Shown piece by piece: positions 1 to 15,739 of a stretch of DNA of 62,876 bases (positions are counted from its first letter, which is position 1; every line of letters begins with the position of its first letter). The notes beneath the pieces are model-generated. The model was given only the letters and a program-made list of their open reading frames with translations. It was not told the DNA's origin and did no database searches. Source of the DNA: Candidatus Nealsonbacteria bacterium (GTDB lineage: Bacteria > Patescibacteriota > Minisyncoccia > Minisyncoccales > PWPS01); contig PWEN01000042.1 of NCBI GenBank assembly GCA_003553505.1, forward strand, positions 1 through 62,876. Reading direction: 5' to 3'. Position numbers and translations under genes: made by a program.

Positions 1-914
<914 letters not shown>

Positions 915-959
915 TAGTATTTAATGACCATTACACTTTTCAAATGATTGGAGTCATTC

Positions 960-1070
960 TATGGGGGCTAACAGTGACGTTGTCCCACCCGTTCCCATTC
1001 CGAACACGGTAGTGAAATACGTCAATGCCGATGATAGTGGGTTTTCCCGCGAAAGTAGGTAGCCCCCATA
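960..1070 (+). rRNA. rrf: 5S rRNA
   Basis: CACCCGTTCCCATTCCGAACACGG and GCCGATGATAGT motifs; ends TATGGGGGC/GCCCCCATA pair as helix I. Confidence 0.95.
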
Positions 1071-4569: not shown

Positions 4570-5028
4570 ATGAAAAAAAGCTTTACCCGTGAGGGGTTAG
4601 AAAAATTGAAAAAAAGACTCGCTTTTCTTGAGAAAACAAAACGAAAAGAGGTTGCTGATGAACTGAAAGCTGCTGCTTCTTTTGGTGATTTGAGTGAGAA
4701 TTCGGCATATGAAGAAGCAAAACATGAGCAAAATATGCTTGAAACGGAGATCTCGAAGATAAGGGAGGCGATAAAAAATGCGGAAGTAGTGGAGATGGAT
4801 AAAGATTCAAAGTTGGTTCAGATAGGGTCGAGAATTGTTGTGGAAACAAGTGATGGCAAGGAGGAATTTGAGATAGTGGGAGGAACGGAGTCCGATCCTT
4901 TTGCGGGCAAGATATCTTGTGATTCTCCTTTAGGAAAGGCACTTATTGGTAAAAAAGAAGGAGAGAGCACTGCAGTACAAACTCCTTCTGGAGAAAAAAG
5001 TTATAAAATAGTAAAAATAAATGAGTAG
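4570..5028 (+). CDS. greA: Transcription elongation factor GreA
   Basis: GDLSENSAY, IS.DSPLGKALIG; start moved to ATG 4570. Confidence 0.96.
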   Translation: MKKSFTREGLEKLKKRLAFLEKTKRKEVADELKAAASFGDLSENSAYEEAKHEQNMLETEISKIREAIKNAEVVEMDKDSKLVQIGSRIVVETSDGKEEFEIVGGTESDPFAGKISCDSPLGKALIGKKEGESTAVQTPSGEKSYKIVKINE

Positions 5029-6487
5029 AAAAGAAGAGCTCAGAAAAAACCGCATAGAGAAGATGCGAAACGTGGAAAAGGACTCTCCTCCTTATCCTTT
5101 GTTGACCGCAAGAAATTACACTTTAAAAGAGGCGTTTTCTAGGTTTGAGAAATTAAAAGAAAGCGAAGAAGAGGTGGTCGTTGCTGGAAGATTGCGATCT
5201 ATACGTCAACACGGAAAACTTACTTTTGCAAACATAGAAGATGGAACAGCAGAGATACAGGTGTTTATTTCCGAGGATACTATCGGCAAAGTTCCCTATA
5301 ACTTTTTTTTGGAGAACTTTGATATGGGTGATTTTGTAGAAGTGAGAGGGGTTTTGTTTTTAACAAAAAAGAATGAGAAAAGCATAAAGGTGGCAGATCT
5401 AAAAATGCTCTCCAAGAGTCTTCTTCCTCTTCCTGAAAAGTGGCACGGACTGCAAGATACGGAAGAGAGATACAGAAAAAGATATCTCGATCTTCTTTTT
5501 AATGATGAGGTGAAAGAAAGCTTCCGTAAGCGCTCCAAGATAATAAAAGAGCTTCGTAGATTTTTGGAAAAAAAAGAGTTCATGGAGGTGGAGACTCCGG
5601 TGTTGCAGCCTATGTATGGAGGGGGGAGTGCAAAGCCCTTTAAAACGCACCTGAACGCTCTCTCTATGGATCTCTATCTTCGCATTGCTCCGGAGCTTTA
5701 CCTTAAGCGTCTTCTTGTAGGAGGTTTTGATAAGGTCTATGAGATGGGAAAGTGTTTTCGAAATGAAGGGATCGATAAGACACACAATCCGGAATTTACT
5801 TCTTTGGAGATATATAAGGCGTACTCGGACTACAAAAAGATGATGAGTTTTACGGAGGAGATGGTTTTATATGTACTAAAAGAGGTTTTGGGAAAGAAGG
5901 ATCTTTGGTATGACGAGAAAAAGATAGAGTTTTCTGCTCCTTTTGAGAGAGTTCAATTTTACGACCTTATTCGTAAAGAGACAGGAATAGACCTAGAAGA
6001 GATAAGTGTAGACGCTTTACGAAAAGAAGCGGAGAGTATGGGCATAGAACTGGAAAAGGGAGCAAGTAAAGCGCATATAAGTGATGAAATATTTAAGGAA
6101 AAGTGTCGTCATAAACTGGTGCAACCTACTTTTGTTATTCATCATCCGGAGGGTTTTCAGCCTCTTGCCAAGCCTCTTCCTGATGGATCGGGAAAGCTTG
6201 CCACCTTTCAGCTTTATATTGCTGGATGGGAGATTGTAAATGCCTTTTCGGAGCTAAATGATCCCACAGAACAAAGAAAAAGATTTATAGAGCAAGAGAA
6301 GATGCTTGAAAAAGGATTTACAGAAGCACAGCGGATGGATGAGGACTTTCTTACTGCATTAGAACATGGCATGCCTCCCGCTGTTGGTTTTGGTATGGGC
6401 GTTGATCGTTTTTGTGCCATACTTACCGGATCACACAGTCTTCGTGAGATTATTCTTTTTCCTGCAATGAGAAAAAAAGATGAATAG
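5021..6487 (+). CDS. lysS: Lysine--tRNA ligase (class II)
   Basis: PLPEKWHGL, RYRKRYLDL, LRIAPELYLKRL, FRNEG, GMPP..G.G.G.DR. Confidence 0.97.
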   Translation: MSRKEELRKNRIEKMRNVEKDSPPYPLLTARNYTLKEAFSRFEKLKESEEEVVVAGRLRSIRQHGKLTFANIEDGTAEIQVFISEDTIGKVPYNFFLENFDMGDFVEVRGVLFLTKKNEKSIKVADLKMLSKSLLPLPEKWHGLQDTEERYRKRYLDLLFNDEVKESFRKRSKIIKELRRFLEKKEFMEVETPVLQPMYGGGSAKPFKTHLNALSMDLYLRIAPELYLKRLLVGGFDKVYEMGKCFRNEGIDKTHNPEFTSLEIYKAYSDYKKMMSFTEEMVLYVLKEVLGKKDLWYDEKKIEFSAPFERVQFYDLIRKETGIDLEEISVDALRKEAESMGIELEKGASKAHISDEIFKEKCRHKLVQPTFVIHHPEGFQPLAKPLPDGSGKLATFQLYIAGWEIVNAFSELNDPTEQRKRFIEQEKMLEKGFTEAQRMDEDFLTALEHGMPPAVGFGMGVDRFCAILTGSHSLREIILFPAMRKKDE

Positions 6488-7037
6488 AGAAGAAGCTTTA
6501 CAACTTATAAAGAAGTATGTTAAAAATAAAAACAGTATAAAGCACATGCTTGCAGTTGAGGTTGTTATGCGTTCTTTAGCAAAGAGATTTGGAGAGCCGG
6601 AAGATAAATGGGCAGTGGCTGGCCTGTTGCACGATATTGACATGGAGATAGTGGACTACAGGAACAATGAAGAGCAACATGGTGTTGTTGGGGCTGATAT
6701 ACTAAGAAAGGAAGGAGTAGAGGAAGATATTATTGATGCAGTTTTGGCTCATAATGCTGCTACCGGCAAGAAAAGAGAAACGCTTATGGAGAAAGCTATA
6801 TTTGCAGTAGATCCCCTTACAGGGCTGATAGTTGCTTCCGTGTTAGTTCTTCCCGAGAAGAAGATAGAAAATATATCTACTGATTCTGTCATGAACCGTT
6901 TCAAAGAAAAGTCTTTTGCAAAAGGCGCGAATCGTGAAGTCATACTTTCTTGCAAAGAGATGGATATGGATTTGGAGGAGTTTATTTCTGTTTCTCTGCT
7001 TGCTATGCAAGAGATAAGTGAAGATTTAGAACTTTAA
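6480..7037 (+). CDS. HDIG/HD-domain hydrolase
   Basis: REEAL...KH.LAVE..MR.LA, GLLHDID, A.DPLTGLI, KSFA.GANRE. Confidence 0.85.
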   Translation: MNREEALQLIKKYVKNKNSIKHMLAVEVVMRSLAKRFGEPEDKWAVAGLLHDIDMEIVDYRNNEEQHGVVGADILRKEGVEEDIIDAVLAHNAATGKKRETLMEKAIFAVDPLTGLIVASVLVLPEKKIENISTDSVMNRFKEKSFAKGANREVILSCKEMDMDLEEFISVSLLAMQEISEDLEL

Positions 7038-7047
7038 ATTAATCAAA

Positions 7048-7246
7048 AGCTGTGAAGGAGAATTTCCGCTCCGGAGCTGGTCGGGGAAAACGCTTTGCGA
7101 CTAACCCGTCCCGGCAGCGACCGTAATATCGCTTTTTTCCCTTCAGATAGGGAAAGTGAGGCTCTTTTTGGCAACAAAAAGAGTAAAATCAAAGTGGCAC
7201 CACGAGCATGCTCTCGTCTTTGATGTTTTAAGATGAGAGTTTTTTT
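7048..7246 (+). promoter_or_regulatory. Serine T-box riboswitch (ultrashort Stem I, transcriptional) upstream of serS
   Basis: K-turn Stem I with UCC (Ser) at 7065-7067; Stem II; IIA/B pseudoknot; Stem III with GCAA loop; antiterminator bulge UGGCACC 7195-7201; alternative terminator. Confidence 0.88.
7211..7246 (+). terminator. T-box-controlled intrinsic terminator
   Basis: CTCTCGTCTT/AAGATGAGAG stem followed by T7; shares sequence with the antiterminator 3' strand. Confidence 0.85.
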
Positions 7247-7267
7247 ATATAATAATTATTAAAAGTT

Positions 7268-8515
7268 ATGATCGATATAAAACTTATTCGCAAAAATCCA
7301 AAGCAGATTAAAGATGCTTGCCTTAAAAAAGGTGTAGAGATTGACACAGATCTTATCTTGCGCCTTGACAAGCAAAGAAGAGACCTTCTTTCAGAGGTAG
7401 AGGAGATGCGTGCCAAGAAGAATGAGGCAAATAAGAAACTTGCGAGTGCCACAAGCGAAGAAAAGGAAAAGATAATAGAGGAGATGCGCGCAATTGATAA
7501 AGGTGATGCAGAAAGAAGACTAAAAGAAACAGAGGAAGAGCTTGAAAGAAACCTTCTCCTTATTCCTAATCCTCCTCTTGACGATGTTGTTGTGGGGAAA
7601 AGCGATGATGACAACGTCGTTATTCGCAGAGAAGGGGATCTGCCGGAGTTTTCTTTTGCTCCTCGTGACTATATGGAGATATGTGAAAAACTTGATATAA
7701 TTGACCTTAAGCGTGCTGCAAAGGTGTCCGGTTCACGTTTCGGTATACTAAAGGGAGAGGGTGCTCTTCTGCACCTGGCTATCGTTAATTTTGTGATGGA
7801 GAAATGCATGAAGCATGGATTCTCTCCTCTCTTGCCTCCCGTAATGATCAGGCCGGAGATGATGAAAGGCATGGGATACGTAGAAAGAGGCGGTGATGAG
7901 ATATACCACATAGAAAAGGACAATCTTTATCTTGTGGGAACATCGGAGCAGATTATTGGCCCTATGCACTCAGGAGAGATACTGGATGAAAAAGAGCTTC
8001 CTCGCAGATATGTAGCATACTCTTCCTGTTTTCGTAGAGAGGCCGGGTCTTATGGAAAGGACACGAAAGGCATATTGCGAGTGCATCAGTTTGAAAAGGT
8101 AGAAATGTTTTCCTTTACGACTCCTGAAAAATCAAAAGAGGAGCACAGTCTTCTCCTTTCCATAGAAGAAGAGATTATGAAAGATTTAAAGATACCATAT
8201 CAGGTTATTGATATATGTAGTGCCGATCTGGGCGATCCTGCAGCATCAAAGTATGACATAGAAGCTTGGATGCCCGGACAAGGAGATTACAGAGAAACGC
8301 ATTCTACTTCCAACTGCACTGATTTTCAGGCAAGAAGACTTAATATACGTTATAAAAGCAGAGAGGAGACCAATTTTCTACACACCTTAAACGGAACAGG
8401 GCTTGCAGTTGGAAGAGCAATTATCGCATTAATAGAGAACAACCAGAGAGAAGATGGGAGTGTAGATATTCCCGAGGCATTACACAAGTTTCTTCCCTTT
8501 ACAAAGATCGGATGA
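7268..8515 (+). CDS. serS: Serine--tRNA ligase
   Basis: MIDIKLIR, LVGTSE, FRREAG, RVHQFEKVE, SNCTDFQARRL, HTLNGT. Confidence 0.97.
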   Translation: MIDIKLIRKNPKQIKDACLKKGVEIDTDLILRLDKQRRDLLSEVEEMRAKKNEANKKLASATSEEKEKIIEEMRAIDKGDAERRLKETEEELERNLLLIPNPPLDDVVVGKSDDDNVVIRREGDLPEFSFAPRDYMEICEKLDIIDLKRAAKVSGSRFGILKGEGALLHLAIVNFVMEKCMKHGFSPLLPPVMIRPEMMKGMGYVERGGDEIYHIEKDNLYLVGTSEQIIGPMHSGEILDEKELPRRYVAYSSCFRREAGSYGKDTKGILRVHQFEKVEMFSFTTPEKSKEEHSLLLSIEEEIMKDLKIPYQVIDICSADLGDPAASKYDIEAWMPGQGDYRETHSTSNCTDFQARRLNIRYKSREETNFLHTLNGTGLAVGRAIIALIENNQREDGSVDIPEALHKFLPFTKIG

Positions 8516-9456
8516 AAATTGAAACAGTAACAACAAAAAAAGACTGGGACAGGTTTATATTAAAAGAAAATGGGAGCTTTTTGCAGTCTTTTGATTGGGG
8601 GGTCTTTCAGGAAAAACAAGGAAATCCTGTTTTTCGTATTGCGGTGCGATCAAAAGGAGAGACGATACTCCAAGCGCAGATAATAAAAGAAAAACTGCCT
8701 TTTTCCAAGTTTTATTTTCAGCTGCCTTATGGGCCGGTGACAAAGAAAGGATTAACGGAAGATAAAAGACGTGAGGCGGAAAGAATGCTTGTAAAGCAAG
8801 TAAGTGGCAAGGGTGCGGTTTTCATGATAGTGGAGCCCTTAAAAGAGTTCTTTTTTGGGAAAAAGGCTTCTTTTCGTATACAGCCGCAAAAAACGTCTGT
8901 TATAGACTTAACCAAGAGCATTGAGGATATTTTTAACTCTTTCAAAAAGGATCTTCGCTATAGCATACGCACAGCACAAAAAAAGGGAGTAGAATTGGAA
9001 GAAGGTCCTTATGACGAGCGTTTTTTTGATTTACTGGAAAAAGTAAAGGAAAGAAAGGGGTTTTCTTCTTATCATTCTTCTTATTTTCCCGAATTACTTG
9101 ATACTGTTAATTCTCGTTTTTTCTTTGTGAGTTATGAGGGAAAACTTGTAGCGGGCATGATAATGGTATTTTTTGGTGATACAGTTACCTCTCTGCACTC
9201 TGCCTCAGACTACGATTACCGCCACTTGCAAACTCCTTCTTTGCAAAGATTTCATGCTTGTCTTGAAGGTAAAAAGCAAGGCTTTGCGTGGCATGACCTT
9301 TGGGGAATAGAAGAGGAGAAATATCCCGGAGTGGCAAATTTCAAGAAAAAGTTTTGCGGAAGAGAGATCGTCTACCCTCAAGGAAAGGTGGTTGTTTTTT
9401 CACATTTTTGGTATACCCTTTATATTATCGCAAAGAAAATAAAACGCATCTTATGA
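8512..9456 (+). CDS. FemABX-family peptidoglycan bridge aminoacyltransferase
   Basis: SFLQSFDWG, PYGP, TSVIDL, RYSIR.A.KKGV, DLWGI...GV..FKKKF.G. Confidence 0.88.
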   Translation: MKIETVTTKKDWDRFILKENGSFLQSFDWGVFQEKQGNPVFRIAVRSKGETILQAQIIKEKLPFSKFYFQLPYGPVTKKGLTEDKRREAERMLVKQVSGKGAVFMIVEPLKEFFFGKKASFRIQPQKTSVIDLTKSIEDIFNSFKKDLRYSIRTAQKKGVELEEGPYDERFFDLLEKVKERKGFSSYHSSYFPELLDTVNSRFFFVSYEGKLVAGMIMVFFGDTVTSLHSASDYDYRHLQTPSLQRFHACLEGKKQGFAWHDLWGIEEEKYPGVANFKKKFCGREIVYPQGKVVVFSHFWYTLYIIAKKIKRIL

Positions 9457-15643: not shown

Positions 15644-15715
15644 GCGCCCGTAGCTCAAAGGTAGAGCAGTTGCCTTTTAAGCAAACGGCTGTAGGTTCGA
15701 GTCCTACCGGGCGCA
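15644..15715 (+). tRNA. tRNA-Lys(TTT); CCA not encoded
   Basis: Acceptor GCGCCCG/CGGGCGC, D arm GCTC/GAGC, anticodon TTT 15676-15678, T loop TTCGAGT; preceded by TTGACT...TAAAAT. Confidence 0.93.
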
Positions 15716-15739
15716 CAATTAATTACAAGAAAAAAACTC

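Follow-up and report, generated by a model that had tools for sequence, protein, structure and literature searches.

A predicted serine-specific T-box with an ultrashort Stem I and an intrinsic terminator upstream of serS in Candidatus Nealsonbacteria

The window analysed here is a 62,876 nt stretch of contig PWEN01000042.1, from a Candidatus Nealsonbacteria assembly (GCA_003553505.1; 810 kb, 70 contigs, 68 % complete) of the Patescibacteria, or candidate phyla radiation (CPR). Between an HD-domain gene and serS, the seryl-tRNA synthetase (SerRS) gene, it carries a leader that, judged by sequence and comparison, is a real T-box riboswitch, in which Stem I is reduced to a small hairpin and the downstream switch is an intrinsic terminator (Table 1). 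A first-pass annotation, made from the sequence and a list of its open reading frames, had described a hybrid T-box here: a kink-turn (K-turn) hairpin of about 31 nt with UCC in its terminal loop, Stem II at about 7079-7111, a IIA/B pseudoknot (CGG/CCG, AGCGA/TCGCT), Stem III with a GCAA loop, and an antiterminator exclusive with a T-tailed terminator, followed by serS. All of these elements were recovered at the described coordinates by sequence inspection, alignment to the Rfam T-box model (RF00230) and folding, and Pfam domains identified the next gene as serS. The annotation had also anticipated that standard models might miss the element, and this proved to be so, as described below.

Table 1. 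Features of the serS locus and other annotated genes in the window (coordinates in nt from the first position of the window)
Feature	Position	Strand	Evidence and remarks
LysRS (lysyl-tRNA synthetase) gene	5021-6487	+	Directly upstream of HD-domain gene
HD-domain gene	6480-7037	+	Stop codon 6 nt before T-box start
Leader (T-box match 7043-7224)	7043-7246	+	Between HD-domain gene and serS
Ultrashort Stem I	7049-7077	+	Sequence and RF00230 alignment (6 nt for 74 positions)
Specifier UCC (Ser)	7065-7067	+	Followed by purine G7068, the final loop nucleotide
Stem II	7079-7111	+	Internal loop GAAAA/ACUAA (S-turn position), UUU-capped upper helix; RF00230 alignment and minimum free energy (MFE) fold
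Stem IIA	7112-7114 with 7121-7123	+	CGG/CCG
Stem IIB pseudoknot	7116-7120 with 7129-7133	+	AGCGA/UCGCU
Extra linker hairpin	7137-7154	+	UUCCCU/AGGGAA, loop UCAGAU; MFE fold; missing from first-pass annotation
Stem III	7161-7184	+	10 pairs, GCAA tetraloop 7171-7174; RF00230 alignment and MFE fold
Antiterminator	7189-7223	+	-7.6 kcal/mol; 7-nt bulge UGGCACC 7195-7201
Intrinsic terminator	Hairpin 7210-7240, U7 7240-7246	+	-14.2 kcal/mol; 11 pairs, 9-nt loop; RNAfold
serS, regulated gene	7268-8515	+	Pfam Seryl_tRNA_N 8.9e-19, tRNA-synt_2b 2.1e-35
FemAB-family gene	8512-9456	+	Pfam FemAB 2.4e-33; 4-nt overlap with serS end
23S rRNA, 3' part	1-917		Cut by window start
5S rRNA	961-1070		
tRNA-Lys(UUU)	15644-15716		

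RF00230 aligned end to end (model positions 1-219) to 7043-7224 with a score of 61.6 bits (E 3e-13 under permissive E-value thresholds, or 1.8e-13 when scored per genome). The region 7043-7246 folds with an MFE of -70.9 kcal/mol, a z score of -3.6 relative to dinucleotide shuffles. The T-box sequence itself was identified as AAAGUGGCACCACG (7191-7204), with the 7-nt bulge UGGN-ACC in the antiterminator helix; the consensus printed in a 2024 paper is AGGGUGGNACCGCG, and the helix positions at which 7191-7204 departs from the T-box consensus are compensated on the 3' strand.

Stem I starts with two basal pairs (G7049-C7077 and C7050-G7076), above which the K-turn strands UGUGAA (7051-7056) and GGA (7073-7075) align to the UGA and GGAG positions of the model, matching the basal GA motif of Stem I at the level of sequence. 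A helix of 4 bp (GGAG 7057-7060 with CUCC 7069-7072) then carries an 8-nt apical loop, AAUUUCCG (7061-7068), in which UCC sits at -4 to -2 from the 3' end, the position held by AAC, GAC and AUC in related leaders. The distal Stem I platform, an interdigitated double T-loop for the tRNA elbow, is absent, with 6 nt standing against 74 RF00230 model positions, and the sequence upstream of Stem I is the coding end of the HD-domain gene.

At the 3' end of the leader, the terminator 5' arm (7210-7220) is also the 3' strand of the antiterminator, such that the two structures are mutually exclusive. When the terminator 3' arm was left out (7043-7229), the antiterminator with its 7-nt bulge formed in the MFE structure. 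The 7210-7240 hairpin was absent from a simple terminator scan, its 9-nt loop lying outside the 3-8 nt limit of the scanner. Two helices that the same scan called terminator-like (7116-7133 and 7202-7217) were rejected as parts of the pseudoknot and the antiterminator, respectively.

The genome encodes 41 tRNAs, including tRNA-Ser(GGA) on contig C68, and G73 is present in all four tRNA-Ser genes. The UGGC of the bulge is complementary to the G73-C-C-A end of tRNA-Ser, as the first-pass annotation had supposed from the usual bacterial discriminator base. The specifier matches the downstream gene (UCC and serS) and the bulge matches the discriminator of tRNA-Ser(GGA). No other tRNA of those checked is compatible with UCC and UGGC together.

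From these sequence features, we consider it highly probable that a serine-specific T-box controls serS, and probably the FemAB-family gene as well, by transcription attenuation. The nascent leader would fold into a compact decoding module in which the ultrashort K-turn Stem I is docked on Stem II and the IIA/B pseudoknot, and the apical loop would present UCC for pairing with the GGA anticodon of tRNA-Ser. If that tRNA were uncharged, its G73-C-C-A end would pair with UGGC and steady the antiterminator, weak in itself (-7.6 kcal/mol) and stacked on Stem III; RNA polymerase would then continue into serS. If it were charged or absent, the terminator (-14.2 kcal/mol) and its U7 tract would form and transcription would stop approximately 21 nt before the start codon. 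Since there is no distal platform for the tRNA elbow, capture would have to rest on the Stem I/Stem II/IIA-B pocket, by analogy with the ultrashort ileS T-boxes of Actinobacteria, with a read-out that is presumably co-transcriptional. We infer tRNA binding, discrimination between charged and uncharged tRNA, and the outcome of termination or readthrough from the anatomy of the leader, its covariation and its fit to gene and tRNA.

Comparison with related genomes supported conservation of this anatomy. RF00230 gave matches in 13 of 41 genomes of relatives, 24 of 151 genomes of the order and 50 of 151 genomes of the phylum, of which one, two and five genomes, respectively, had a match above the Rfam cut-off; full-length matches in the phylum (n=95) had a median length of 187 nt. 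Using MAFFT, which is blind to structure, we aligned seven Ser leaders (alignment A1) drawn from the genus of the window and from three further families of the order. Here 92.2 % of cells could pair, compared with 79.2 % in shuffles and 39-51 % in slid controls, and 19 of 36 pairs had changed on both sides, although the structure scored was drawn from the window's own sequence, which favours that structure. Compensatory change extended to Stem III, where 8 of 10 pairs had changed on both sides, and to the Stem I helix (for example, GGAG/CUCC to AGAG/CUCU). The loop core UUUCC was invariant in all seven leaders, and complementarity of 4-6 bp at the IIB position was found at the same offset, with differing sequences, in 8/8 Ser-type leaders. 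Covariation, which the first-pass annotation had pointed to as a check, was present in the Ser leaders.

A covariance model built from the same alignment (R1) recovered these Ser leaders at 127-165 bits, as well as weaker matches of other specificities. Applied to 80 serS loci from named genomes, R1 gave seven matches, among them one of 126 nt from Nealsonbacteria and others of 101-110 nt; most relatives' serS genes therefore lack such a leader and the element is sporadic. The closest SerRS proteins (58-61 % identity) belong to Nealsonbacteria, Staskawiczbacteria, Paceibacter and Patescibacteria records, which places the organism in the CPR as the first-pass annotation had supposed. The sequencing runs listed as holding the leader sequence comprise salt-lake and soda-lake metagenome DNA only. 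Without exception, the 13 leaders with an apical-loop UCC lie ahead of Ser-related genes as judged by Pfam, namely serS (n=9), a His_Phos_1 gene followed by serS (n=3) or a HAD hydrolase gene (n=1). The His_Phos_1 and HAD hydrolase families both include phosphoserine phosphatases, and these genes (L099 810-1445, L097 1344-1976, L108 1120-1734 and L041 443-1159) are, on sequence grounds, candidate phosphoserine phosphatases under tRNA-Ser control. Very small Ser leaders of 101-126 nt were also observed (L102 1802-1911, L085 1847-1947 and L049 1560-1685). Stem I, the IIA/B pseudoknot and a shortened Stem II are retained in them, and Stem III appears to be missing; the UGGC of L102 and L085 seems to lie in a small hairpin, not in a bulged antiterminator.

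The window element is no one-off hybrid and belongs to a lineage-wide set of T-boxes with a short Stem I coupled to a terminator. In an alignment of 32 short-Stem-I leaders to R1 (alignment A3), 93.8 % of cells could pair, compared with 67.2 % in shuffles and 37-50 % in slid controls, bearing in mind that the alignment was fitted to the R1 model and so leans towards its structure. All seven Stem II pairs had changed on both sides in this alignment. Stem I spanned 26-36 nt in 22 of the 32 leaders and 45-77 nt in seven, with three misaligned. A terminator, defined as a hairpin of -8 kcal/mol or lower overlapping the antiterminator 3' strand by at least 4 nt and followed by at least five U in the next 9 nt, was present in 36 of 42 short-Stem-I leaders, compared with 11 of the 356 control windows taken at those loci. 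Long-Stem-I T-boxes also occur in the phylum (Stem I of 91-102 nt in 4/24 leaders of alignment A4), so the short form is common but not universal.

Across related leaders, the apical-loop triplets, codons for Ile, Asp, Asn, Trp, Arg, Pro, Gly or Thr, agree with the genes downstream as assigned by Pfam, and the gene-matched codon always directly adjoins the last loop nucleotide on its 5' side. Class IIb synthetases follow AAC and GAC leaders, and GAC is also found ahead of an aminotransferase; AUC precedes class I synthetases, UGG a GATase or PALP (TrpB-like) enzyme, CGC argininosuccinate synthase, CCC prolyl-tRNA synthetase (ProRS) and ACC threonyl-tRNA synthetase (ThrRS). GGC precedes class II synthetases resembling glycyl-tRNA synthetase (GlyRS) with the Pfam pair tRNA-synt_2b and HGTP_anticodon; this pair does not separate GlyRS from its relatives, and we take these genes to encode GlyRS from an N-terminal motif. 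One leader initially considered an Ala leader (L023) was rejected as such, being a Pro (CCC) leader upstream of ProRS.

Several other leaders were observed alongside this set. The genome of the window has a second T-box (L002 1560-1715, approximately 2440-2600 of contig C29; RF00230 39.7 bits) upstream of the GlyRS-like gene glyS. Its small hairpin, GGG-AGAUUGGCA-CCC, displays GGC in the apical loop; a UGGA bulge that fits U73 of tRNA-Gly is present, as are Stem III and a terminator. Stem II is not recognisable, and a divergent gene starting approximately 38 nt upstream leaves too little space for a long Stem I. Similar glyS leaders were found in L007-L013 and L040. A T-box that had neither Stem II nor the elbow platform would be smaller than every class named in a 2023 paper. 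Seven leaders of thrS genes from the same taxonomic order (L028, L029, L033, L034, L035, L039 and L015) have a plain hairpin whose apical loop (e.g. CCACCAA, GCUACCAA) shows ACC and then A, together with a UGGA bulge and terminators; no K-turn was seen in them by eye. Trp-type (UGG) short T-boxes also precede genes for CxxC proteins of approximately 60-100 aa (L004 1145-1450, L019 1191-1442, and the reading frames directly after the leaders in L025 and L026), with an acylphosphatase gene further downstream in L026. The two small CxxC proteins scanned, those of L004 and L019, had no Pfam match.

Set against characterised T-boxes, the element comprises a Class III decoding module joined to a Class I expression platform, with a new specificity and in a new host phylum. 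With the ultrashort (Class III) ileS T-boxes of Actinobacteria such as Mycobacterium and Nocardia it shares a short K-turn Stem I without the double-T-loop platform, an apical-loop specifier followed by a purine, Stem II, IIA/B, Stem III and the UGGN bulge. It differs from them in having UCC and serS rather than ileS and tRNA-Ile, in ending with a terminator and U7 rather than a Shine-Dalgarno sequestrator, in its extra linker hairpin and 8-nt loop (5-6 nt in the ileS leaders), and in its CPR/Patescibacteria host. Like Class I transcriptional T-boxes (Bacillus subtilis tyrS; RF00230), it has a K-turn, Stem II, IIA/B, Stem III, a UGGN bulge, an antiterminator that competes with a terminator, and a downstream gene for an aminoacyl-tRNA synthetase. 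Unlike them, it lacks the distal Stem I, whose AG bulge and distal loop build the tRNA-elbow platform, places the specifier in the apical and not an internal loop, and scores 61.6 bits where the cut-off is 93. A transcriptional read-out and a reduced domain set recall Class II glyQS T-boxes, but those keep a long Stem I without Stem II, the reverse of the situation here; the glyS leader of the same genome, in contrast to glyQS, seems to lack both.

In the accessible literature, ultrashort Stem I is described only for translational ileS T-boxes. Class III, in the 2023 paper, has a short Stem I without the platform, a specifier in a 5-6-nt apical loop and a required Stem II; the 2024 paper equates a shorter Stem I with translational regulation; and a 2023 preprint has every ultrashort T-box regulating ileS. 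Reviews state that transcriptional T-boxes generally need a long Stem I and that the elbow platform gives fast tRNA capture, and the T-box database (TBDB) paper describes running a translational model on hits with truncated Stem I. The first-pass annotation's placing of ultrashort Stem I with translational ileS T-boxes, and of long Stem I with transcriptional ones, agrees with this literature. Searches for papers on T-boxes in CPR/Patescibacteria gave none, although terminator-coupled short forms may have been mentioned earlier. The five Actinomycetota genomes reached via serS loci contained only long-Stem-I or partial matches.

Besides the leaning of both alignments noted above, a number of observations weigh against a functional serine T-box of this design. 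The T-box was absent from a default Rfam scan of the window, 61.6 bits being below the gathering score of 93. UCC is followed by C and not by a purine in 3/7 leaders of alignment A1, the apical loop of 8 nt exceeds the 5-6 nt described for Class III, and the internal loop of Stem II (GAAAA/ACUAA) deviates from the consensus GAA/AGUA. Six of the 42 short-Stem-I leaders fail the strict terminator definition, four of them, by eye, since the hairpin runs into the U-run. The leader begins 6 nt past the stop codon of the HD-domain gene, and a simple promoter scan of 6900-7350 found no promoter upstream of it. The only two promoter-like matches in that interval lie past the terminator (7228-7256 and 7244-7272). 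These sigma-70-like sequences (TTAAGA-17-AATAAT and TTTATA-17-TATGAT; two found versus 0.9 +/- 0.9 expected in shuffles) are probably chance matches in AT-rich sequence between the terminator and the start of serS; a genuine promoter at 7228-7272, if real, would bypass the riboswitch. Lastly, the elbow platform that reviews call needed in transcriptional T-boxes is absent, which places kinetic feasibility in question.

This last point bears on an alternative in which the leader is a T-box whose lost platform is compensated, whether by the linker hairpin (7137-7154) touching the tRNA, by a protein or by a polymerase pause, such that the decoding module alone would be insufficient for co-transcriptional sensing. 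The necessity that reviews ascribe to the platform for fast capture speaks for compensation, as does the presence, by eye, of a linker hairpin in all seven leaders of alignment A1, those of the window and of L005 included. The hairpin in L005 has another sequence, however, and neither sequence nor length of the linker hairpin is conserved overall; no T-loop-like motif was seen, and L049 (126 nt), L102 and L085 (both within 101-110 nt) have no such hairpin. We regard compensation as unlikely on this evidence.

It is more doubtful still that the leader has decayed into a fixed attenuator, or is simply the end of the upstream operon, with tRNA sensing lost. The score below the Rfam cut-off, the adjoining stop codon and the failure to find a promoter would suit such a constitutive leader, but compensatory changes preserve all helices in seven Ser leaders from four families of the order, the UUUCC loop core and UGGN bulge are conserved, and specifier and bulge both fit the genome's own tRNA-Ser. 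We consider decay very improbable.

Translational control, with a second hairpin sequestering the ribosome-binding site as in the actinobacterial ileS T-boxes, is what the available literature on ultrashort Stem I would predict, and it appears hardly tenable at this locus. The 3' end of the hairpin (7240) lies 27 nt upstream of the ATG at 7268 and is followed by seven U, the last of them 21 nt before the ATG, so the terminator does not sequester the ribosome-binding site; the sequence immediately upstream of the start codon (7247-7267) lies outside its helix. The start codons of other Ser leaders are 35-315 nt past the antiterminator, and the enrichment of terminator features in short-Stem-I leaders over control windows also argues against it. 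There is a similarly slight chance that another tRNA is sensed through a different triplet of the loop AAUUUCCG, which also contains UUC and UUU (Phe), AUU (Ile) and CCG (Pro), given that tRNA-Phe(GAA), tRNA-Pro(CGG) and the Ile tRNA carry A73, no pairing partner for the C of UGGC, unlike G73 of tRNA-Ser(GGA), that the downstream gene is serS, and that related leaders keep the codon just before the last loop nucleotide.

The gene neighbourhood of the serine T-box bears on how it might be deployed. Because the leader starts only 6 nt past the HD-domain stop codon, it may act as an internal attenuator inside a longer transcript. Downstream, the FemAB-family gene is probably co-transcribed with serS and would therefore be under the same T-box control. 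A FemAB-family gene after a serS with a Ser T-box was also observed in G159 and, as the second gene downstream, in G158; in G117 and G044, genes for an alpha/beta hydrolase and a Mur ligase come after the corresponding serS. Coordinates of genes following serS at such loci are L173 426-1550, L176 3-773, and approximately 865-1701 in L174 and L175. The FemAB and Mur-ligase neighbours suggest a link between Ser-tRNA supply and peptidoglycan peptide synthesis, and hint that Ser-tRNA supply for cell-wall peptides may be under the same switch.

In the field's explanation, a long Stem I serves quick tRNA capture before RNA polymerase reaches the terminator, and the ultrashort form, in the accessible literature, is a trait of ileS switches that act reversibly on translation. 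An ultrashort Ser T-box that is conserved, covaries and is coupled to a terminator, with relatives for many other amino acids in the same phylum, challenges this long-Stem-I rule, and poses the question of whether a decoding module of approximately 70 nt without elbow contact can sense tRNA co-transcriptionally. Most T-boxes in these genomes fall under the Rfam cut-off (only 5/50 genomes with matches in the phylum and 2/24 in the order have one above it), and CPR annotation therefore under-reports them. We give about an even chance to the broader proposition that Patescibacteria carry phylum-wide miniaturized transcriptional T-boxes for at least ten amino acids (Ser, Ile, Asp, Asn, Trp, Arg, Pro, Ala, Gly and Thr), all without the elbow platform, with some Gly, Thr and Ser leaders of approximately 100-130 nt seemingly also lacking Stem II or Stem III. 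If true, those leaders would be the smallest natural tRNA sensors, and compact sensors of this kind would be useful parts for RNA engineering. If they are also functional, elbow contact would be no kinetic requirement for co-transcriptional tRNA sensing, and the association of short Stem I with translational control of ileS only would reflect the phyla sampled so far rather than a real rule.

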